Source: an uncultured Chloroflexia bacterium
GTDB taxonomy: Bacteria > Chloroflexota > Anaerolineae > Anaerolineales > UBA4823
Direction: 5' to 3'
Length of the DNA stretch: 64,000 bases
NCBI GenBank assembly: GCA_963793095.1
Contig: CAWBYY010000001.1
Coordinates: 70,431 to 134,430 of the forward strand
This document shows, piece after piece, positions 52,710 to 63,046 of the stretch; positions within the stretch are counted from its first letter, which is position 1; every line of letters starts with the position of its first letter. The position numbers and the translations under genes were made by a program. Below the pieces are notes generated by a model. It saw only the letters and a program-made list of their open reading frames with translations, did not search any database and was not told the origin of the DNA.

Positions 52710-54131
52710 ATGGATCTATTTGATCAGGCGTTGAACGAAAGAATAAAACACGAGGCTCCCCTGGCAGCCCGGATGCGACCGCGTACACTGGAGGAATTCC
52801 AGGGCCAGGAGGACATCCTTGGCCCGGGAAAATTGCTGAGGCGGGCGATCGAGGCGGACCGTTTGTTTTCCTCGCTCATCCTGTGGGGACCTCCCGGATC
52901 AGGCAAGACCACCCTGGCGCAGGTCATAGCAAACAGGACCAGATCCCATTTTGAGACCTTATCGGCGGTTCTGGCGGGCAAGGCGGAACTGCGCAAGGTG
53001 ATCGCGGATGCCCTGGAACAGAGGAAATATTACAATCGAAGGACGATCCTTTTCGTGGATGAGGTTCACCGCTGGAACAAAGCCCAGCAGGATGCCCTGC
53101 TGCCGCATGTCGAGCAGGGCGAGATCACCCTGATCGGAGCGACAACAGAGAACCCCTATTTCGAGGTGATCGGGGCGCTGGTGTCGCGTTCGCGCATATT
53201 TCAACTGCGCCCGCTGAAGGACGAGGATGTTATCCGGATTCTCCAGAATGCCATCCAGGATGAAGAACGCGGTTACGGCAGCCGGCGGATTATCCTGGAT
53301 GATAATGCCCGGGAACACCTTATCCGGGTTGCCGGTGGTGATGCCCGCAATGCGCTCAACGCGCTTGAACTGGCGGTAGAAAGCACGATACCCGGCAGCA
53401 AGGGGGAAATCCACATCACCCTGGATGTCGCCCAGGAATCGATCCAGCGCCGGGCGGTGCTTTACGATAAGGACGGGGATTCCCATTACGATACCATATC
53501 CGCGTTTATAAAATCGGTGCGCGGCTCAGACCCGGATGCTGCCCTGTACTGGCTGGCGAAGATGCTGTATGCCGGTGAAGACCCGCGCTTTATTTTGCGG
53601 CGGTTAATAATACTGGCGGGTGAAGATATCGGCCTGGCAGAGCCGCAGGGGCTGGTGGTCGCCAGCGCGGCTGCTCAGGCGTTTGATTATATCGGGATGC
53701 CTGAGGGGATTTTCCCGATCGTTGAGGCGACCTTATTTCTGGCAACCGCCTCGAAATCTAATTCTGCTATGGCTTATTTTAAAGCCTTCAAGTTGATTGA
53801 GGATGAAGGCATCATTGAAGTTCCGCAGCACCTGCAGGATGCAAACCGGGATGGGAAGGCGCTCGGGCACGGCAGGGATTACCGCTACCCGCATGATGCT
53901 GAGGACCACTTCACACCCCAGCAGTACCTGCCCCGGAAAATCCTGGGAACATATTTCTACGAACCATCAAGCCAGGGGTACGAACAACAGGTGGATGAAC
54001 GCTTAAGCCGCTGGCGGGAAGCCCAGCGTAAAGCGCTCGGTATCGAAAAGCCAGAGATGCTGCCGGATATCAGCGAGGATATGATTCAGGACCTCAAACA
54101 CCGCCATAAACCGGCAAGGATGGGTTCTTAA
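52710..54131 (+). CDS. rarA: replication-associated recombination protein A (MgsA/RarA AAA+ ATPase)
   Basis: LILWGPPGSGKTTLA, LFVDEVHRWNKAQQDALLP, GATTENP and the C-terminal DPDAALYWLAKML region are present. Confidence 0.95.
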   Translation: MDLFDQALNERIKHEAPLAARMRPRTLEEFQGQEDILGPGKLLRRAIEADRLFSSLILWGPPGSGKTTLAQVIANRTRSHFETLSAVLAGKAELRKVIADALEQRKYYNRRTILFVDEVHRWNKAQQDALLPHVEQGEITLIGATTENPYFEVIGALVSRSRIFQLRPLKDEDVIRILQNAIQDEERGYGSRRIILDDNAREHLIRVAGGDARNALNALELAVESTIPGSKGEIHITLDVAQESIQRRAVLYDKDGDSHYDTISAFIKSVRGSDPDAALYWLAKMLYAGEDPRFILRRLIILAGEDIGLAEPQGLVVASAAAQAFDYIGMPEGIFPIVEATLFLATASKSNSAMAYFKAFKLIEDEGIIEVPQHLQDANRDGKALGHGRDYRYPHDAEDHFTPQQYLPRKILGTYFYEPSSQGYEQQVDERLSRWREAQRKALGIEKPEMLPDISEDMIQDLKHRHKPARMGS

Positions 54132-54137
54132 AAGCAG

Positions 54138-54755
54138 ATGCCAATCATATTGATGGTTCGACACGCGGAAAATGAATACCTGCAAGCTGGGCGGATGGCT
54201 GGCAGGGCGGCTGGCGTTCACCTGAATGAAAATGGCCGGAAACAAGCCCTGGAACTGGCTGAAAACCTGGCAAGGTGGCCGGTTAAGGCTGTATACAGCA
54301 GCCCGCTAGAACGCACGATGGAGACTGCTCAGCCTATCGCTGAAGGGCTGGGTTTGCAAGTTGCAGCGAGGGCTGGATTGATAGAGACAGATGTTGGCGA
54401 ATGGCAGGATAAAACCCTCAAATCACTCCGCCGGCGCAGGCTGTGGCGCCGGGTGCAGACATCACCCTCAAGATTTCGCTTTCCGGAGGGAGAATCCCTG
54501 TCTTCAGCACAGATGAGGATTGTCGCCGAACTGGAGGAGATCCTGGCGAGTCACAAACCGCGTGACATGATTGTGTGCGTTTCTCATTCTGACCCGATTA
54601 AACTCGCAGTGGCGTATTATGCCGGGATGGCGCTGGATCTTTTCCAGAGGATAATTGTCTCCCCGGCCTCCGTCAGCGCTCTCCAATTTGGGGAGTCAAG
54701 CGTGCGCCTGCTCATGCTGAACTACCGTTTTTCCATCAATTTAAAGAAATTTTGA
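54138..54755 (+). CDS. histidine-phosphatase (phosphoglycerate-mutase-like) protein, MSMEG_4193-type putative phosphomutase
   Basis: The N-terminal motif is MVRHAEN (RHG/A-E motif) and SHSDPIK is the second His motif. The gene sits directly upstream of DUF3090 and SCO1664-family genes. Confidence 0.8.
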   Translation: MPIILMVRHAENEYLQAGRMAGRAAGVHLNENGRKQALELAENLARWPVKAVYSSPLERTMETAQPIAEGLGLQVAARAGLIETDVGEWQDKTLKSLRRRRLWRRVQTSPSRFRFPEGESLSSAQMRIVAELEEILASHKPRDMIVCVSHSDPIKLAVAYYAGMALDLFQRIIVSPASVSALQFGESSVRLLMLNYRFSINLKKF

Positions 54756-54792
54756 TTCTGGTATACTCATTTACGTAACCCGGACGAAAAAA

Positions 54793-55320
54793 ATGGCTGA
54801 ACAAGAAATCGACCTGCAACCCGTCAACCATATCACGACCGATGCAATCGGCCAACCCGGCAAGCGCGTGTTCTACCTGCAGGGCTGGCAGAACGAACGG
54901 ACAGTCACATTAATCGTTGAGAAGCTTCAAATTCAATCCCTGGCGGTTGGAGTTGAGCAGTTTCTTGCCGAGATCCAGGAGAAATTCCCGGACCTGGACG
55001 ATGCCAGAACGGACTACGAAGAGGACAAGATGCATATTGCGCCGCCGGTTGACCCGCTTTTCAGAGTTGGCGAGATCGGTCTGGGATACGACAAAGACCA
55101 AGATCTGGTGGTTTTGATCTCCAGGGAAATTGTGCCGGAAGGCGAAGACCCGAAAGATGCCCGGGTGGTGCGTTTCTGGTGCACCCGCTCCCAGATCCGA
55201 AGCATGTGCCGCTGGGGTATTGAAGTCGCGGCAAGGGGCAGGCCGTTATGCCCGCAGTGCGGAGAGCCGATGGACCCCAGCGGGCATTTCTGCCCGAAAA
55301 AGAACGGGCATAAACACTGA
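54793..55320 (+). CDS. DUF3090 family protein
   Basis: The pattern is TTDAIGQPGKRVFYLQG...FRVGEIGLGYD...VVRFW with a C-terminal zinc ribbon, CPQCGEPMDPSGHFCPKKNGH. Confidence 0.8.
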   Translation: MAEQEIDLQPVNHITTDAIGQPGKRVFYLQGWQNERTVTLIVEKLQIQSLAVGVEQFLAEIQEKFPDLDDARTDYEEDKMHIAPPVDPLFRVGEIGLGYDKDQDLVVLISREIVPEGEDPKDARVVRFWCTRSQIRSMCRWGIEVAARGRPLCPQCGEPMDPSGHFCPKKNGHKH

Positions 55321-55381
55321 TCTGGATAGATATCTCAAAGCGCAGCAGGGGGATAAGGACTGGTAAACAACCTACCGAATT

Positions 55382-56140
55382 GTGTTTACAAAGGAATCCA
55401 GCTGGACAATGGACGAGAACCTGGACTTTGAATTTCTTCAGCACGGCGAAATAGAAATTAAAGGAGAATTTTTGTGGGGGTCCAACTATACCTTCCTGGT
55501 AAATCTGTGTTACGGCGGAATTAATCGGGCAGCTGTTTACAAACCTAGCAAAGGCCAGCAACCGTTATGGGATTTCCCGGCGGAAAGCCTTGCCCACCGG
55601 GAGGCGGCGGCATTTTTAGTGAGCCAGGCGCTGAAATGGGATTTTGTCCCTTTAACCGCCTACCGCGAAAATGGGCCGCTAGGCCCGGGTTCGCTGCAGT
55701 TTTTTATAGAGCACAACCCTGAATACCATTATTTTAATTTCACCCGGAAAGACCGACAGCGTCTGCGGCCGGTGGTCGTTTTTGATATCCTGATAAATAA
55801 TGCTGACCGCAAGGGCAGCCATTTGCTGATTGACGCCGAAAAGCGCCTGTGGTTGATAGACCACGGCCTGTGCTTCCACCGGGATGATAAACTTCGCACT
55901 GTTCTGTGGGACTTTGTCGGAGAACCGGTTCCGGCGAGTATCCTGGAGAGTGTCTCCCAATTTTATAAAAATCTTGTGGAACAGAAAGAAGAAAGCGGCG
56001 GTTTATATAATGAATTAAACGCCCATCTAGACCGCGTTGAAATTGAAGCTCTTTTATTAAGGGCCGAGCGTTTGATCAAAACAGATGAATTTCCCCAGCC
56101 AGATCCTGCGAGGAGGCCGTTCCCCTGGCCGCAGATATAA
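55382..56140 (+). CDS. SCO1664-family protein (PI3/PI4-kinase-like fold)
   Basis: GSNYTFLV...AVYKP...GEQPLWDF-like segment, and DILINNADRKGSHLLID...LWLIDHGLCF (catalytic-loop and DxG-like motifs). The start is GTG 55382 or ATG 55409. Confidence 0.75.
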   Translation: MFTKESSWTMDENLDFEFLQHGEIEIKGEFLWGSNYTFLVNLCYGGINRAAVYKPSKGQQPLWDFPAESLAHREAAAFLVSQALKWDFVPLTAYRENGPLGPGSLQFFIEHNPEYHYFNFTRKDRQRLRPVVVFDILINNADRKGSHLLIDAEKRLWLIDHGLCFHRDDKLRTVLWDFVGEPVPASILESVSQFYKNLVEQKEESGGLYNELNAHLDRVEIEALLLRAERLIKTDEFPQPDPARRPFPWPQI

Positions 56141-56247
56141 CCAATCGGGGGAATTCTTCCCAAATTCCTTTATAATCCTGGGGAATCACCCTTTACTGGT
56201 GTAGAATTTAAATTCATTTTGATGCAGACAAACCGGGAGGCTGGATT

Positions 56248-57261
56248 ATGCCGCACTACAATTTAGCGTTGATGGGATTTGGAAATGTTGGCCGGGCGCT
56301 GGCGCGCTTGCTTCTGGACAAAAGAGGCGAACTGGCAAGCCGCTATGACCTGTCCTTTGCCGTTACCGCGATTGCAACCGGCAGGCATGGAGTGGTGATA
56401 AACCGGGACGGCATTGACCTCGAGCGAGCCCTGCGGTTAGAAGACCTCAGCGTGCTCTCCGATTTAGTCGCGCCCCGGGAGGGCTGCGAGTTTATCTGTG
56501 AATGCGGCGCGGATGTGCTATTTGAAAATACCCCCGTAAATTACAAAAGCGGACAGCCGGCGGTGGACTGCATCCGCACCGCGCTGGATTGCGGGATGCA
56601 TGTGATCACCGCCAATAAAGGACCGGTTGTGCACGCATACCGGGAACTAACCGAGATCGCTGAAAATAAAGGCAGGCGGTTTTACTTTGAGTCGGCAGTG
56701 ATGGACGGCGCGCCGGTGTTTGCCCTTTTCAGGGAGACTTTGCCCGCAACCAACCTGCTTTCTTTCAAGGGCGTATTAAATTCCACCACCAATGTAATCC
56801 TGACCCGCATGGAAAGCGGGGAGAGTTTCGACCAGGCCGTGGCTTATGCTCAGAATGTTGGCCTTGCCGAGACCGATCCCAGCGGAGATATTGACGGCTG
56901 GGATGCGGCGGTAAAGGTGGCCGCGCTGGCGACAGTGTTAATGGGGGTTCCCATGCTACCGTCTGAGATCGACCGGGAGGGGATCCGGGGGGTTACGCCT
57001 GAGAAGATCGAACAGGCAAAACAGAATGGAAAACGCTGGAAATTACTGTGCTCGGCAGAAAAAACCGGCCAGGCAGTGGTCGCCAGGGTCGCGCCCGAGA
57101 TGGTTGGGCCGGAGACGCCCTTTTATTCGATTGAAGGCTCGACCAGCATCGTCCAGTTCACCACCGATACGCTGCCCGAGTTATCGCTGATAGAAGGCAA
57201 CCCCGGGCCGGATACAACCGCTTACGGTTTGCTGGCTGATTTTATCAACGCCGTCACCTGA
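56248..57261 (+). CDS. hom: homoserine dehydrogenase (no ACT domain)
   Basis: GFGNVG NAD-binding motif, ITANKGP, and AQNVGLAETDPSGDIDGWDAAVKVAAL are present. The RBS is GGGAGG. Confidence 0.85.
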   Translation: MPHYNLALMGFGNVGRALARLLLDKRGELASRYDLSFAVTAIATGRHGVVINRDGIDLERALRLEDLSVLSDLVAPREGCEFICECGADVLFENTPVNYKSGQPAVDCIRTALDCGMHVITANKGPVVHAYRELTEIAENKGRRFYFESAVMDGAPVFALFRETLPATNLLSFKGVLNSTTNVILTRMESGESFDQAVAYAQNVGLAETDPSGDIDGWDAAVKVAALATVLMGVPMLPSEIDREGIRGVTPEKIEQAKQNGKRWKLLCSAEKTGQAVVARVAPEMVGPETPFYSIEGSTSIVQFTTDTLPELSLIEGNPGPDTTAYGLLADFINAVT

Positions 57262-57527
57262 AATATATTGCGCAATAAACCGGTAAAGATCGAAATATAG
57301 TTCTGTTTCGCAGCCGTTCCCAATTACTAACTAATTTACGAGTTACCTCAGCTTAAGGGGGCGGATGAGGAATTTGCATCCGGGGCCAGCCTGGCACAAT
57401 CCTGACGGCACAAGGAAAGTGTTGCCTTGGATGGCTTGCCGTTTTCAAGGCGATCCGTCTTAAGTTGAGGCAAGTTCACTAAAAGACTGGTCTTTGGCTG
57501 GCTTTGGAATATTTATAAATTTCCTCT

Positions 57528-57854
57528 TTAGCTGGATTGATATACGTTTTCAAACCATTGTTTATATGAAATACGCATTTTTTCATCCGTCTCCAATGTG
57601 ATTTCATACCCACCAAATGGTAAATGAAAGAGATCCTTGATCCTTAAACCATTGTAATACAGTGGTTGAAGGATTCGTATTCGGGTTGGTTTTACAGCAT
57701 ATCCCCCCAAATTTCTATCCGAAAGTTGTTTCTCGAATTTTTCTACCCAGTTTGGTGAACATCTGGGTAATACTTTGTATTTTGAAGAAGTGAAGTTGTC
57801 CTTATTTTTCCCCTTTTTTCTACTTTGCATTCTATTTTTAATTTTGTTTAGCAT
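57528..57854 (-). CDS. hypothetical protein (orphan, AT-rich)
   Basis: 108-aa ORF with a Lys-rich N-terminus. I recognise no family. It lies in the AT-rich segment after hom, and its coding status is uncertain. Confidence 0.4.
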   Translation of the reverse strand: MLNKIKNRMQSRKKGKNKDNFTSSKYKVLPRCSPNWVEKFEKQLSDRNLGGYAVKPTRIRILQPLYYNGLRIKDLFHLPFGGYEITLETDEKMRISYKQWFENVYQSS

Positions 57855-58350
57855 TTCTTTTCTTCCCCTAAAAGTTTAATGCAATAGTTCTCTATCCTGC
57901 ACTCAGAAGTAACAACATATTATATGGTAATTCTCATCGCCCAACCTTTCAGCTTATTGAAAAAATAATTCTGTAGTATTGATATAATCAATCAACGTGA
58001 AGGTTTAACGGATAAGTGACAATTTTTCACTTTATCCACAGAATTTGAATACAAAGAATTCTTCTGAGAGGTATTATCCAAAGCTTATAAGAAATTGATT
58101 CATATAAAATGTGTTTGGTGGATTTCTCGAATCAAGATGTTGGGTTATCAACCAGTTCACACAGCATGCACCCGACGCTTGGGATTCTGGGCGATATTTT
58201 TGGTTTGGTTCTAGCTTTTGGTATATACTGGTCTGTGGACATTATCTCGACCCGCCCCAGCACAGGTAACCCGAGCCGTTAGGCGGCCTGCTTCTTCACT
58301 CTGCTTGTGATAGGAAGACTGCCGCACACATATAAGGAGAGGTACCCTAA

Positions 58351-58821
58351 ATGCCCGAAAAAGATCTTCCAATGGCGCACGACAAGAATATTGGCCTGGT
58401 CGCACACGACAACAAGAAACACGCTCTTGTTGAGTGGGCCCGGTTCAATAAAGATCTTTTGTCCCATCACAAACTCTACTCGACGGGGACGACTGGCCTT
58501 ATGCTGGAAAAAGAACTTGGCTTCGAGGTGAACAAGCTACAAAGTGGGCCTCTCGGAGGCGACCAGCAGATTGGCGCGAAGATCGCTGATGGCGAAATTA
58601 ACTTTCTGATCTTCTTCTGGGATCCACTTGAGCCGATGCCGCACGATCCCGATGTGAAAGCGCTTCTTAGAATGGCAGTAGTGTGGAATATCCCCATCGC
58701 GTGCAATCGATCTTCAGCAGATTTCATGATTTCCTCACCCTTGATGGATTCAGAGTACTCACGCCTGCTGCCTGACTACGATGAATACCGTACGCGGGAG
58801 TTAGGGGACAATGAGCTATGA
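58351..58821 (+). CDS. mgsA: methylglyoxal synthase
   Basis: [39 protein letters not shown] and [13 protein letters not shown] are present. The RBS AAGGAGAGG lies upstream of ATG 58351. Confidence 0.9.
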
Positions 58822-58839
58822 CAGATCGCGAACTCAACG

Positions 58840-59805
58840 GTGCGCAGACTAAGGCCTTCTACCGTCTCGCTGGAACGGACCCACCGCGAGGAGCGAGAAG
58901 ATATCCATAGGTTTCGAAGAAACCTATGGGGTCGGCTCCGTTTCTACGCCGCGTTCGTCTGGCGCTTTGTGGTGCTGCAACACCCGGAACCGCTCATCTA
59001 TGGCTTGGCGGTGACGGACCGTTGCAACCTTGCCTGCCGCGGCTGTCACGTCTCCAATACCGGCCGTCCCGATATGACCTGGGATCAACTGGTCACCGCG
59101 ATGCAGGACGCATGGAACCGCGGGTTCCGGGAGCTGTACTTCAGCGGTGGGGAACCCATGCTGTGGCGCGACGCAGACCATACACTCAAGGACGCGGTTG
59201 TCGAGGCGAAACGGATTGGTTTCTTCCACGTACATGTTTACACCAACGGCCTGTTTGAACTCGAAACCTCGGCTGATCTCGTCTGGGTCAGTATGGATGG
59301 GTTGCCAGGCACCTTTGATATGCGGCGCGGCAATCACTTTCATCAGGTCGAACGCACCATTCGCACGAGGTCGCACCCCAAGGTCGCCGTTATCTACGTG
59401 ATTGACCGCAACACCGCGGAGGGCATCGAGCCGTTCCTGCAGTGGGTGGATGAAACGAATTTCCCTATCATCGGTGTCATGTTCTACTTCCACACGCCTT
59501 ACTACGGGCGCGACGAGTTGTTCCTGACCAATGAGGAGCGCGCGCCGATCATTGACCGGCTCCTCGATTGCATCCGGGCCGGGCTGCCGATTCTCAATTC
59601 ACGGGCTGGTTTATTGGCGCTGAAATCTGGCGATTGGCCACGACGTTTTGCTGTGGCTTCGGTGAGAGATGTTGATGGCGAGTCGGTGTGCTGTCGCGCC
59701 GCGGATGAGGTCTGTGCGGACTGTGGTTACGCAGCGTGCACTGAGCTTACAGAGTTTCAACGCTTGCGCCCGAGCGCATTGCTCGGCATGCTGAGGTACT
59801 GGTGA
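58840..59805 (+). CDS. radical SAM enzyme with Cys-rich (SPASM/twitch-like) C-terminus
   Basis: CNLACRGC (CX3CX2C) is preceded by LIYGLAVTDR, with FSGGEPMLW (GGE motif) downstream. The C-terminus is CC-x6-C-x2-C-x4-C (VCCRAADEVCADCGYAAC). The start is ambiguous: GTG 58840, or ATG 58818 in another frame. Confidence 0.8.
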   Translation: MRRLRPSTVSLERTHREEREDIHRFRRNLWGRLRFYAAFVWRFVVLQHPEPLIYGLAVTDRCNLACRGCHVSNTGRPDMTWDQLVTAMQDAWNRGFRELYFSGGEPMLWRDADHTLKDAVVEAKRIGFFHVHVYTNGLFELETSADLVWVSMDGLPGTFDMRRGNHFHQVERTIRTRSHPKVAVIYVIDRNTAEGIEPFLQWVDETNFPIIGVMFYFHTPYYGRDELFLTNEERAPIIDRLLDCIRAGLPILNSRAGLLALKSGDWPRRFAVASVRDVDGESVCCRAADEVCADCGYAACTELTEFQRLRPSALLGMLRYW

Positions 59806-61097
59806 ACAGCCTGAGTCACTGGCTATTACACATGACCACACGATCCATCCGCCGCTACCTGGTGGGGCCTGAACAACGCTGGGTTTTCGAACGGCCCGCT
59901 CCGGGTTGGGCTCCAGTGCTGGTTGAGCGCACTTCGCTGTATTTGCATGTGCCGTTCTGCTGCCACTTTTGCCCCTATTGTCCTTACACCAAAGTTCCTT
60001 ATCGCGCCTCACTCGTGGAACCCTTCACCCGGGCAGCAATTGCCGAGGTAGACTGGTGGGCTGATGCGATTGGGCCGGCGGAGATAACGAGTGTCTACAT
60101 CGGCGGAGGCACGCCGACACTGGCGCTGGACAGCGTCGCCCGTGTGCTGAGGCGCGTGCGCGAGCGGTTCCGCCTGACAGGCGATATCTGCATCGAAACC
60201 AACCCTGCTGACGTGAATGATGAGACCGTGCAGTGTTTGCATGACATGGATGTGGCGCTTGTTTCACTGGGTGTGGAATCGTTCCAGCCTGAGAACCTTG
60301 CCATAATTGGACGTGACTACAAGCCCCTCGTTGCAGAACAGGCGCTGGCACTGCTCGCGGAGAGTGGTTTTGCTTCGGTTAACGTGGATCTCATGTTCGC
60401 TCTGCCGCGCCAGACTGTCGCTGATGTGACTGCAGATTTAGCCCGAGCCGCGCAGCTCGGCGCGGACCAGCTCACGACATACCCACTCTTCACTTTTCCA
60501 TACACCTCGGTCGGTAAATACATGCGGCTGAAGGCGGTGCGAATGCCAAAACTGCGTATGCGCCAGGCGCACTACCGGGCCATTAGCAGGTGGTGCGCTG
60601 AACACAACTTTGAGCGCGTTTCGGTGTGGGGCTTCAAGAGAGGCACCGTCCCGCGCTATTCCTCGGTCACCCGGGACGGCTACATAGGGATAGGCCCTGG
60701 CGCCGGATCGCATCTGCCCGATGGGTTCGTGCTTAATACATTCGATTTCAATAGTTGGGTCCAGGCAACGTGCAACGGGCGCTCGGCGATCGCCCTGCGC
60801 ATGCCGTTCGCTGGTGAGATGTCTGGCTGGTGGTGGCTGTACTGGAGGATTTATGACACGCGCATTCCACTGGACGGCCTAAATGCGGCTCTTTGTAATG
60901 ATGCCCCCAAGACCCGCCAGTGGCTGAGAGTCATGGAACAGGCCGGGTTCGCGGTCCACAATGGCGGGCATCTCGAACTCACTGAGTCGGGCGCCTTCTG
61001 GCTTCATCTTGCGCAGAACTACTTCGCACTAAATTATGTGAACACGCTATGGACCCAGGCACGTGGGGAGCCGTGGCCGCAGGCAGTGGCGATTTGA
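59802..61097 (+). CDS. HemN-family radical SAM enzyme (coproporphyrinogen-dehydrogenase / HemW / class C methyltransferase-like)
   Basis: LYLHVPFCCHFCPYCPY (CX3CX2C in the HemN context) and VYIGGGTPT are present. 431 aa. The GTG start overlaps the upstream stop (GTGA). Confidence 0.85.
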   Translation: MNSLSHWLLHMTTRSIRRYLVGPEQRWVFERPAPGWAPVLVERTSLYLHVPFCCHFCPYCPYTKVPYRASLVEPFTRAAIAEVDWWADAIGPAEITSVYIGGGTPTLALDSVARVLRRVRERFRLTGDICIETNPADVNDETVQCLHDMDVALVSLGVESFQPENLAIIGRDYKPLVAEQALALLAESGFASVNVDLMFALPRQTVADVTADLARAAQLGADQLTTYPLFTFPYTSVGKYMRLKAVRMPKLRMRQAHYRAISRWCAEHNFERVSVWGFKRGTVPRYSSVTRDGYIGIGPGAGSHLPDGFVLNTFDFNSWVQATCNGRSAIALRMPFAGEMSGWWWLYWRIYDTRIPLDGLNAALCNDAPKTRQWLRVMEQAGFAVHNGGHLELTESGAFWLHLAQNYFALNYVNTLWTQARGEPWPQAVAI

Positions 61098-61312
61098 ACC
61101 AGGACGCGGGCTAACCCGGACTGCAAGCGGGCAGGAATACAGCTTTCAACTGCGAACGATAATGTGAACAAAATACATGTTGTGTTCATATCCCCCAGAA
61201 AATGACTGTTAAATCGGTCCTTGTCTTTTAATTCATGTTCTGCTATCGTGTTCTTAGTAGACATATTGGTCTCTCATGACGGTTATGTTTACTCCATTTC
61301 AGCAGTCGTTTT

Positions 61313-61435
61313 ATGAATTTTGTTGAGCCGATCCGCGATCGAAAAAAGATCGCTCAAATCAAGAACCTGCTGCGTGGTCAGTGACGTTTCCGCGATCTGT
61401 TGTTGTTCAACGTGGGTGTCAATTATTTATTATAA
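61313..61435 (+). mobile_element. tyrosine-recombinase (integrase) N-terminal remnant, with an in-frame stop and truncated
   Basis: My own translation gives MNFVEPIRDRKKIAQIKNLLRGQ*RFRDLLLFNVGVNYLL*. Up to ...GVN it matches the conserved N-terminus of small site-specific integrases (…EPIRD.K.I..IK.YL......RD.LLF..GIN(T)GLRISD…). The TGA is at 61382-61384. The catalytic domain is absent. Confidence 0.6.
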
Positions 61436-61827
61436 TTGCAGCTGCACTCACTTCGGTTTGATCTTTCTTCAGGGTGGATTTTTACTTAATTTAACCTTTC
61501 TTGTACGAACCATAATCGTCATGTTTCTCTCCTCTACCCATTGTTGGCATTATCACATAATCTTTGCGGTTCAGAAGTGTACAAAATGTATTTTGTTTCT
61601 AATGTAATAGTGCATATAATAGTTATGAATGATTGGTTACTACAATTTGAACCAAATATTAATCTATTGCTGAATAATCCCCCCTTTATTTTCAGGACGT
61701 TATACGGCAAAAAATGCCGCCATAGGCTTATTATACGGGCTGTATAAACACCAGTTGGGCCGTTCACGAAGCAGTAATTTATTTCTTGGGCAGCTGATAA
61801 TTCCGAATTGTAGAGGTTTATGTTCCT

Positions 61828-62787
61828 ATGACTGCAGCAATGGATGATTTAGAAAAACGCTTGACCCAACTGAAGCGAGAGGTGCCTACGCGAGGTCTTG
61901 AGCGTCACCCTTCAGTGTTGAAAAACATATCTGATCTGCCTCCCGACCTCCAATCGCCAGCCGTGACGGCCCTAGCCTCCAGTATAGCCATCCAGACCAT
62001 TATTGTATTTCCACCGCAGATACATCGTGGGTGGGACTATGTTCCGAAGCAGGCCCTGCTGTTTTCGCCTGCGGATGTGATCTGTCTTATGGCGTCGGTT
62101 TGGCCTGACCAGGAACCCCAAATCAGGCATATAAAGGGGGGCGGGATCATGTATGTGCGAGTGTCAATGATATTGCTTTATGGATTACTGGAAATCCTTG
62201 CGCAAGGATCGGGTTCGCCAACTCGAGTCAACGTGGAATTCAATACAGTAGCCTGGTACCTCCTGGCACCTCCTGTGCGGCTATTGCTGCAGGCGACCAA
62301 AGCCATTTCCGGCACGCAGATAGGGCAATCCTCCTATTCCCAAGATATCCAACAGGCGCTTGATAAATTGCCGCTGAAGTTTTCAAATGGTGTAAGCCTC
62401 TACGGGGTGTTACCTGGTGAGTTACTGGAAGCCCTGGTTTTCCAGCGAGGCACCTGGGAACGTTGGCTGCTGTTGATCCGCCGGCCTATTTCCGCTAACA
62501 CTCTGTTATTACTCACGAGTAATTACATGGTAGTGATCCAGGAAGATTTGAAGACAAGGTATGGATGGATCATCTCGTACCTTCCTCGGGATAGTATTGC
62601 CGGTATGCAAAATCAGGCTTGCGGCGAATGGAATGAGGTGACTGTTCAGTTGAAACGAGGCAGGCAAACTGCAACATATACGTTGCAGTTGAAGAGGGAA
62701 GTTGCTGAGGTTTGGGGAGAGCGGTGGGTGCAGCATGGCGGTCAGTGGCAAGATCTCCCCGGTGAGGCGAAAAAGCCATCCTGGTAA
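61828..62787 (+). CDS. hypothetical protein (orphan)
   Basis: 319-aa ORF with a balanced composition, flanked by AT-rich non-coding DNA. I recognise no motif. Confidence 0.6.
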   Translation: MTAAMDDLEKRLTQLKREVPTRGLERHPSVLKNISDLPPDLQSPAVTALASSIAIQTIIVFPPQIHRGWDYVPKQALLFSPADVICLMASVWPDQEPQIRHIKGGGIMYVRVSMILLYGLLEILAQGSGSPTRVNVEFNTVAWYLLAPPVRLLLQATKAISGTQIGQSSYSQDIQQALDKLPLKFSNGVSLYGVLPGELLEALVFQRGTWERWLLLIRRPISANTLLLLTSNYMVVIQEDLKTRYGWIISYLPRDSIAGMQNQACGEWNEVTVQLKRGRQTATYTLQLKREVAEVWGERWVQHGGQWQDLPGEAKKPSW

Positions 62788-63046
62788 TCAGGCCACCCGA
62801 ACCCGCGAGCACCCGACACCTGCTCCGCAGCACTCCGCCAGTGCAGGAAACGCCAGTCGTTGGGCGAGCATCTACTAAGTGATAATGTTCCTTATGTAAA
62901 TTCACTGAATTGAAAGAATCCAAAACAAATTGATAGTTTATGAAGTTTATTGATAGCAACTCATAGGTATCATGAGTAAAACAAACTTCTGTGATCATGA
63001 TTTTCCCACTGGCAAGCATTTGTGAATAGGAAAAGAGAATAATCCT

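Follow-up and report, generated by a model that had tools for sequence, protein, structure and literature searches.

Which of the genes in a closely packed run belong together, and what do they make? The question is raised by a stretch of 64,000 nucleotides from an uncultured Chloroflexia bacterium (contig CAWBYY010000001.1, positions 70,431 to 134,430; hereafter the window), in which mgsA, a gene for methylglyoxal synthase, is followed at once by genes for two radical S-adenosylmethionine (SAM) enzymes. The earlier note on this DNA had read the three as one operon and as a candidate for an undescribed small-molecule or peptide-modification system. The claim of an undescribed radical SAM system survives in a reduced form, as a widespread orphan cassette of two genes inside known enzyme superfamilies. 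We call these genes rSAM1 and rSAM2, the second being HemN-like. It is nearly certain that the two form a real, translationally coupled, undescribed and co-inherited unit; we are just as confident that this two-gene cassette is the conserved unit at the locus and that mgsA is an incidental housekeeping neighbour in one lineage.

The cassette recurs across phyla. We scanned one genome per GTDB species with rSAM1 alignment A3 as the query, alignment A2 being too divergent, and found relatives of rSAM1 in at least 541 species-level genomes. Pairing was counted in the best 80 of these loci, of which 74 were informative and six were cut by contig ends. A HemN-like gene was present on the same strand, at no more than 1.3 kb from rSAM1, in 69 of the 74 informative loci, and in 52 of these 69 (52/80 species-level loci) the distance was at most 60 bp; five loci had room for such a partner and lacked it. 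The best 80 loci cover at least ten phyla in all, among them Chloroflexota, Actinomycetota, Acidobacteriota, Bacillota, KSB1, Calditrichota, Aminicenantes, Latescibacterota, Planctomycetota, Verrucomicrobiota, Bacteroidota, Atribacterota and others, and the Bacillota carriers include the cultured Heliobacterium mobile and H. chlorum. The identity to the window proteins co-varies between the homologs of rSAM1 and those of rSAM2 (r = 0.85). In the window, the stop codon of rSAM1 overlaps the start codon of rSAM2 (Table 1), an arrangement that, as read from the sequence, indicates translational coupling. This pairing, and the absence of both proteins from the curated families (see below), bear out the view that the two radical SAM genes are an undescribed unit; a literature search for the pair found nothing.

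Both proteins have hundreds of homologs that are 77–99% identical in metagenome contigs of the Chloroflexota/Anaerolineae type, and the Chloroflexota-type clade keeps an identity of 77–99% over more than 120 protein clusters. On contigs with homologs of 77–87% identity the two genes adjoin, in most cases overlapping by the same 4 bp; these contigs have no mgsA beside the pair, and their flanks are unrelated. A tight rSAM1–rSAM2 junction is also seen in loci L001–L004. The contexts outside the pair are unrelated between loci and include sugar ABC transporters, pyrimidine genes, RibF, RF-2, kinases and glycosidases; in Heliobacterium the pair has DUF2157/GDYXXLXY neighbours. The cassette has no curated family or assigned function, yet it is under strong constraint; its carriers are mostly uncultured anaerobes.

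Identity of the window protein to proteins from metagenome-assembled genomes (MAGs) of other phyla can be very high: it reaches 72–78% for MAGs labelled KSB1, Caldithrix, Actinomycetota and Coriobacteriia (L005–L084), a sign either of horizontal transfer in recent times or of wrongly binned contigs. In three Actinomycetota MAGs (L038, L039 and L044), rSAM1 is 69–75% identical to that of the window and is found in the reverse gene order with another partner, a HemN-like paralog 31–32% identical to rSAM2. This arrangement suggests partner swapping between HemN-like clades.

The profile matches identify the product of mgsA unambiguously as methylglyoxal synthase: it scores above the NCBIfam equivalog cutoffs (NF003559, 218.4 bits with a cutoff of 84; TIGR00160, 185.4 bits with a cutoff of 146.9) and matches PF02142 at 5e-19. 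The open reading frames (ORFs), their spacing, the GTGA overlap and the cysteine motifs are all as the earlier note described them. The ATG at 58818, which it had offered as an alternative start of rSAM1, lies 22 nt upstream of the GTG at 58840 and is therefore in another frame, which stops after 30 codons. As no promoter- or terminator-like site was predicted between mgsA and rSAM1, the two are probably co-transcribed in this lineage, with the cassette being read from the mgsA promoter. Tight spacing (18 nt, in a common frame) is not enough by itself to establish a pathway. The shared frame is parted by the TGA of mgsA and six sense codons (…GDNEL*QIANST-V…, window 58351–58842), so that readthrough of the stop would fuse MgsA to rSAM1; such sharing has a chance of 1 in 3 and is probably a coincidence.

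A tblastn search within ±8 kb of the pair found mgsA in none of the 84 other pair loci, and L087 and L088, whose homologs are 87% identical, carry the pair without it. mgsA stands beside the pair only in contigs that are 99–100% identical (L085, L086 and L095), and the synteny of the window is reproduced by the 99%-identical L085 and L086 alone. For the reverse test, we took 80 metagenome loci around relatives of MgsA (72–100% identity), 44 of which were informative, with at least 1.2 kb of downstream sequence. The pair stands beside mgsA in one of the 44, namely the 100%-identical locus, which is from the same organism. Since the trio does not recur outside near-identical contigs, the outcome that the earlier note itself had named as telling against it, the reading of mgsA and the two radical SAM genes as one functional trio is refuted. 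Two of the relatives of mgsA have another HemN-family gene divergently upstream (L111, 4980–5681; L120, 885–1439); these genes are 25–30% identical to rSAM2 and are unrelated to the cassette.

Table 1. Features of the locus in window coordinates, followed by the c4 genes found inside the operon of the pair at other loci (coordinates of the respective locus; for c4 see text).
Feature	Position	Strand	Remark
mgsA (methylglyoxal synthase, 156 aa)	58351..58821	+	TGA stop 58819–58821
rSAM1 (radical SAM, 321 aa)	58840..59805	+	GTG start
rSAM2 (HemN-like radical SAM, 431 aa)	59802..61097	+	GTG start
GTGA start/stop overlap of rSAM1 and rSAM2	59802..59805	+	Read from sequence
rSAM1 C62-x3-C66-x2-C69 codons, radical SAM [4Fe-4S] motif	59023..59046	+	Invariant in family alignments
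rSAM1 C284, C285, C292, C295, C300 codons, putative auxiliary Fe-S site	59689..59739	+	
rSAM2 C53-x3-C57-x2-C60 (plus C54) codons, radical SAM cluster motif	59958..59981	+	
Weak terminator-like hairpin, about 100 nt past the rSAM2 stop, in AT-rich spacer	61204..61219	+	Consensus scan only
c4, locus L027	10156–10794		
c4, locus L040	9958–10800		
c4, locus L070	6072–6704		
c4, loci L066, L068, L071, L073, L075, L076, L081, L089			Between the two rSAM genes

On its profile scores, rSAM1 is a member of an unnamed radical SAM family. Pfam recognizes PF04055 over the N-terminal half only and gives no SPASM match, and all NCBIfam scores are at or below about 39 bits, with cutoffs of 131–725 bits (MoaA, 39.4 with a cutoff of 325; PTO1314, 34.8 with 306; NirJ, 30.7 with 515; AhbC, 28 with 650; the N_Twi_rSAM twitch model, 29.8 with 170). 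The best E-value for AhbD among 41 members of the family was 2e-13. With the AhbC/D, NirJ and MoaA scores this far below the cutoffs, enzyme 1 stands outside the characterized families, in line with the novelty that had been proposed for it. Full-length relatives are about 300 aa long and 28–46% identical (52 representatives of 50%-identity clusters at E ≤ 1e-30), and members of the family range from 288 to 335 aa; a profile search returned 1614 clusters (90% identity) at E ≤ 1e-10, which carry generic names throughout. The named family that relatives of rSAM1 match most consistently is the itself uncharacterized PTO1314 (TIGR03961, a hypothetical equivalog), whose 332-position model is of similar size; it matches 39 of the 41 family members, with a best E-value of 2.6e-41, though still short of the score cutoff, and a literature search for this family found nothing.

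Besides the cysteines of the radical SAM motif (Table 1), C284, C285, C292 and C295 (CC-x6-C-x2-C) are invariant in 52 diverse rSAM1 sequences. C300 is specific to the Chloroflexota-type clade, and the C-terminal five-cysteine cluster described earlier is thus complete in the window protein but comes down to four invariant positions in the family as a whole. The seven-cysteine SPASM motif is incomplete, with these four cysteines invariant. An AlphaFold2 model (predicted local distance difference test, pLDDT, 89.3; predicted template modelling score, pTM, 0.86) has a long helix at the N-terminus, a partial TIM barrel and, towards the C-terminus, a β-hairpin (E273–277/E280–283) followed by helices; the Cys-rich motif comes directly after the predicted hairpin. 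The nearest solved structures in Foldseek are anSMEcpe, viperin, SuiB and BlsE, at a template modelling score (TM) of only about 0.5. The best fold or sequence matches of rSAM1 come from the twitch/SPASM enzymes (anSME, BtrN, BlsE, SuiB and SkfB), at a TM of about 0.5 and an identity of 12–20%, and these share with it a β-hairpin followed by a Cys-rich segment, the possible site of an auxiliary cluster. From the conservation of the cysteines and the structural model, a C-terminal twitch/SPASM-like domain that may bind an auxiliary Fe-S cluster, as had been proposed for enzyme 1, is plausible.

The anSME-like fold also brought up a link to sulfatases, which we rejected: no more than about five loci have a sulfatase gene in the neighbourhood of the pair, which we put down to chance in sulfatase-rich taxa. 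An antisense ORF of 189 aa inside rSAM1 (window 58924–59493, minus strand) is a shadow, an artefact of GC-rich coding sequence; equivalent shadow ORFs are present in 21 related loci and take the place of the true gene in naive longest-ORF calling.

The assignment of rSAM2 to the HemN family stands, both on NCBIfam and Pfam matches and on its fold: the structural model (pLDDT 81.8, pTM 0.85) superposes on E. coli HemN (1OLT) in Foldseek with an E-value of 3.1e-24 and a TM of 0.71 over 400 columns. As the whole fold superposes over these columns, the C-terminal HemN domain is present; the Pfam model HemN_C has no match in rSAM2 of the window and was recorded for one member of the partner clade, L090. 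Within the family, all scores are below the cutoffs (ChuW/HutW TIGR04107, 157 bits with a cutoff of 400; PRK08629, 155 with 355; STM4012, 149 with 380; HemW TIGR00539, 129.5 with 205.4; HemN TIGR00538, 99.5 with 324.95), and the same holds for distant members of the partner clade (STM4012, at most 190 bits; PRK08629, at most 193 bits). No heme-pathway, heme-uptake, heme transport or ChuX/ChuY-like genes were found to recur near the pair. Enzyme 2 falls outside the HemN, HemW and ChuW clades and has no conserved heme neighbours, both as the proposed novelty demanded.

In a phmmer alignment, rSAM2 retains the residues that correspond to Y56, H58, E145, R184 and D209 of HemN, which we take to be residues that matter in that enzyme. 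The fourth cysteine that follows CX3CX2C in HemN is absent in all 74 clade ORFs, and the HemW motif HNxxYW is absent in rSAM2 of the window and in the same 74. The clade has a signature of its own, PFC...CPYCPY(T/N)K, and 60 of the 74 ORFs also have a (P/F)(W/F)P tail at the C-terminus. The motif CXHNX2YW defines HemW, where it takes the place of the second SAM site (PMC13495026). Because this motif is absent and the HemN-aligned residues are kept, we read rSAM2 as a catalytic enzyme and not as a chaperone; judged by its sequence it belongs to a HemN-like clade of its own, probably catalytic and with two SAM sites, and is distinct from the housekeeping HemN and HemW.

Among known systems, the closest architecture is that of the uncharacterized STM4011/STM4012 of Salmonella, in which a smaller radical SAM protein stands beside a HemN-like one of about 430 aa, as in the cassette; their adjacency in Salmonella is taken from the consecutive locus tags alone. 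STM4012 is among the top three curated matches of rSAM2, at the scores given above. The STM4011-family model is not among the best 25 NCBIfam matches of rSAM1; the name of that family is confirmed in the literature (PMC12413039). The class C HemN-like enzymes (ChuW/HutW, MenK/MqnK, TbtI, NosN/NocN, Jaw5 and C10P) have the HemN fold and CX3CX2C in common with rSAM2, which, like the catalytic ones among them, is without the fourth cysteine of HemN and the CXHNX2YW of HemW. However, rSAM2 is close to no characterized member, as is evident from its ChuW/HutW score and from the 57 bits that it reaches with NocN. The partner in the cassette is a second radical SAM enzyme, and such an obligate partnership is undescribed for the class C enzymes listed here and for any characterized HemN-like protein. 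C10P also needs a partner, which in that case is a conventional methyltransferase (PMC10114718).

Few other genes recur with the pair. In 11 loci, the operon contains a third gene, c4 (Table 1), for an SRPBCC-like protein of approximately 190 aa with an N-terminal hydrophobic segment and a conserved cysteine. Three arrangements are found, RS1-c4-HemN, RS1-HemN-c4 and HemN-c4-RS1, where RS1 stands for rSAM1, and because c4 lies inside the operon in all three we consider it likely to be functionally linked to the radical SAM pair. Matches of c4 to Pfam Polyketide_cyc2/SRPBCC models are weak (best E-value 2.4e-6, in two of eight members, below the curated threshold), and a comparison with the PDB sequences gave no match. 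SRPBCC-like proteins are hydrophobic-ligand-binding. A short-chain dehydrogenase/reductase (SDR) gene of the adh_short family adjoins the pair in five loci. In L087 (28–3594), a tandemly duplicated gene pair, consisting of a weakly acyl-CoA-dehydrogenase-like gene (371/363 aa) and a gene for a 210-aa protein, lies directly upstream of the cassette, and L088 has genes related to it in the same place.

What the cassette makes is a separate matter. The reading that we put forward, tentatively and as a possibility that still falls short of an even chance, is that the two enzymes tailor a hydrophobic metabolite (a lipid, a quinone or similar) by two radical reactions that are coupled. The substrate tilts towards the hydrophobic because of the SRPBCC-like and SDR partners and because clues to a peptide, heme or RNA are missing. 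In this proposal, rSAM1 and rSAM2 would share one hydrophobic and probably membrane-associated substrate. rSAM2 would cleave one SAM at its cluster, and the resulting 5'-deoxyadenosyl radical would turn a second SAM into a methylene radical, which would add a one-carbon (C1) unit to an sp2 carbon or abstract a hydrogen atom. We infer these steps from the established chemistry of HemN and of the class C enzymes, which act on sp2 carbons (PMC10114718). rSAM1, like twitch enzymes of the anSME/BtrN type, may carry out a coupled hydrogen abstraction or oxidation on the same substrate, and its step could create or resolve an unsaturated position. In this lineage the cassette came to lie 18 nt behind mgsA, which almost certainly has no part in the chemistry. 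Were the product worked out, class C radical SAM chemistry would gain a new pair of reactions.

Several observations weigh against this proposal. The c4 and SDR genes are absent from the window and from most loci of the close clade, and the SRPBCC assignment goes back to the two members with weak matches mentioned above. Known genes of lipid or quinone metabolism do not recur in the neighbourhood. The fold cannot tell one class of substrate from another, since the neighbours of rSAM1 include peptide- and nucleotide-modifying enzymes, and the different HemN-like paralog in the three Actinomycetota loci fits an rSAM1 that serves HemN-like enzymes generally. For quinones in particular, many Chloroflexota seem to be without quinone pathways (10.1101/2025.09.17.676790). 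The idea of a quinone methylation, prompted by the automatic Joint Genome Institute (JGI) label 'menaquinone C8-methyltransferase' on one homolog and by the Coq10-like fold of SRPBCC proteins, is weakened by this reported lack; MenK/MqnK genes are unreliably detected according to the same survey (10.1101/2025.09.17.676790).

A narrower proposal, which we regard as unlikely, is that the pair, joined in some lineages by the SRPBCC-like and SDR proteins, is an undescribed anaerobic route for the installation of C1 units on membrane lipid chains or on another hydrophobic cofactor. rSAM1 would then make an unsaturation with no need of O2; the carbon from SAM, added by the class-C-type enzyme, would become a methyl group, a cyclopropane or a methylene bridge. 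Because the cassette is found in Acidobacteriota, Anaerolineae, KSB1, Aminicenantes, Planctomycetota and groups like these, this route could explain orphan lipid modifications in sediments. If it is true, the cassette would be a candidate source of the extra methylations of branched tetraethers, for which we found no enzymes described in the literature. Whichever reading holds, the product of the cassette could reveal how bacteria of sediments and the subsurface form a biomarker or modify a cofactor. For the tailoring of a hydrophobic metabolite in general, a comparable pair is known as a precedent from archaea, where Hbs and Hgm, the bridge synthase and methylase of H-shaped glycerol dialkyl glycerol tetraethers (H-GDGT), are radical SAM enzymes that are often adjacent and act sequentially on membrane lipid chains; Hbs is related to AhbD, and homologs are patchy in anaerobic sediment lineages (10.1101/2023.10.20.563219). 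By the criteria of that paper, homologs of Hbs are 400 aa or longer and carry a COG4001 domain, and Moek5 is used there to root Hgm (10.1101/2023.10.20.563219). At 321 aa, and with the family range given above, rSAM1 is shorter than any such Hbs (no search for COG4001 was made), and Hgm, unlike rSAM2, is not HemN-like. By this comparison, the likeness to the cassette is one of logic and not of homology.

A tetrapyrrole module, for the anaerobic synthesis, trafficking or degradation of heme or porphyrins, is the best surviving of the explanations that compete with a hydrophobic metabolite, although we still hold it to be rather unlikely. Here rSAM2 would act as a HemN-, ChuW- or HemW-like enzyme, and rSAM1 would resemble AhbC, AhbD or NirJ and act on side chains. 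The curated families closest to rSAM2 (ChuW/HutW, HemW and HemN) do handle tetrapyrroles, the HemN fold is complete, members of the rSAM1 family weakly match AhbC, NirJ and AhbD, and some of them bear the automatic JGI label 'Fe-coproporphyrin III synthase'. All of these family scores are, however, far below the cutoffs, and neither the fourth cysteine of HemN nor the HemW motif is found in any clade ORF. Genomic context lends one case, a UbiA-family gene resembling heme O synthase (CtaB) at 750 bp from the pair in an Actinomycetota locus, but this is one of 84 loci and, as noted, heme-pathway or uptake genes do not recur.

The modification of a protein, or of a peptide that is made ribosomally and then modified post-translationally (RiPP), is distinctly unlikely in our estimate. 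It would cast rSAM1 as a SPASM/twitch maturase and rSAM2 as a class C methyltransferase, with the substrate encoded elsewhere, and finds support in SkfB, anSME and SuiB being among the best sequence and fold matches of rSAM1 and in the methylation of thiopeptides by the HemN-like TbtI and NosN (PMC10114718). A search within 700 bp of the pair found no conserved small ORF (18–120 aa) in 67 loci, the top small-ORF clusters consisting of shadow ORFs antisense to rSAM1 and of stray cspA genes, so that the peptide-modification system envisaged in the earlier note is not borne out. Nor do a RiPP recognition element, protease, transporter or immunity genes recur, the N-terminal extension of rSAM1 is only a single helix, and the degree of conservation seen in the Chloroflexota-type clade is atypical for tailoring enzymes of natural products.

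Modification of RNA or nucleotides, or a viperin-like anti-phage function, is improbable. The patchy taxonomic distribution and the variable contexts would suit it, as would the viperins among the structural neighbours of rSAM1 and a PADLOC match to pVip of 33 bits, PADLOC being otherwise negative. However, that match covers residues 52–177 only, the generic radical SAM core, and the NCBIfam model for prokaryotic viperins (NF038283) reaches 32.4 bits with a cutoff of 180; moreover, defence-island neighbours do not recur, orthologs are absent from phage contigs and plasmids (see below), and viperins do not have the C-terminal cysteine motif. Least probable of all, to the point of being very hard to credit, is one pathway of mgsA, rSAM1 and rSAM2 in which methylglyoxal or a C3 unit derived from dihydroxyacetone phosphate (DHAP) feeds two radical SAM tailoring steps, since the probable co-transcription in the window is outweighed by the missing mgsA at the other pair loci, the 87%-identical ones included, by the single same-organism contig among the MgsA relatives and by a GC content of mgsA that is 8 points off that of the pair.

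The segment had also been called apparently acquired, which our results do not demonstrate. The radical SAM pair has a GC content of 58.6–58.9% and mgsA one of 50.3%, both inside the range of the genes of the window (34–61%, mean 53.0%, sd 4.6). A search for tRNAs as marks of a mobile element found none, and the repeats that flank the pair are at chance level; a 17-nt inverted repeat lies in the downstream spacer (61167–61183 and 61581–61597). Plasmid sequences gave no matches to the orthologs of the pair, and viral contigs gave weak generic radical SAM matches and no orthologs.

Regulatory elements were searched for as well. Rfam models found no riboswitch or RNA leader in window 56000–63000 at E ≤ 1, and one tRNA and one rRNA fragment only across eight pair loci; no conserved DNA was found upstream of the pair. 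The scan for terminator-type consensus sites returned eight, with 5.3 ± 2.2 expected by chance, and the hairpin downstream of rSAM2 (Table 1) is a weak candidate accordingly.

Unusually long AT-rich spacers (33–43% GC) lie on both sides of the mgsA-rSAM block, at 57262–58350 and 61098–61827, and are similar to the other intergenic regions of the window. The upstream spacer holds an orphan ORF of 108 aa (57528–57854, minus strand, 34% GC) that has no Pfam match. Further upstream, 4 kb from mgsA, is a gene (52710–54131) for the AAA+ recombination ATPase RarA, also called 'MgsA' (Pfam MgsA_C), which shares this name with methylglyoxal synthase by coincidence. It is followed by a tight run of three genes (54138–56140) that encode a His_Phos_1 phosphatase, a DUF3090 protein and a PI3/PI4-kinase-like protein, and this run is kept in the sister contig L085.

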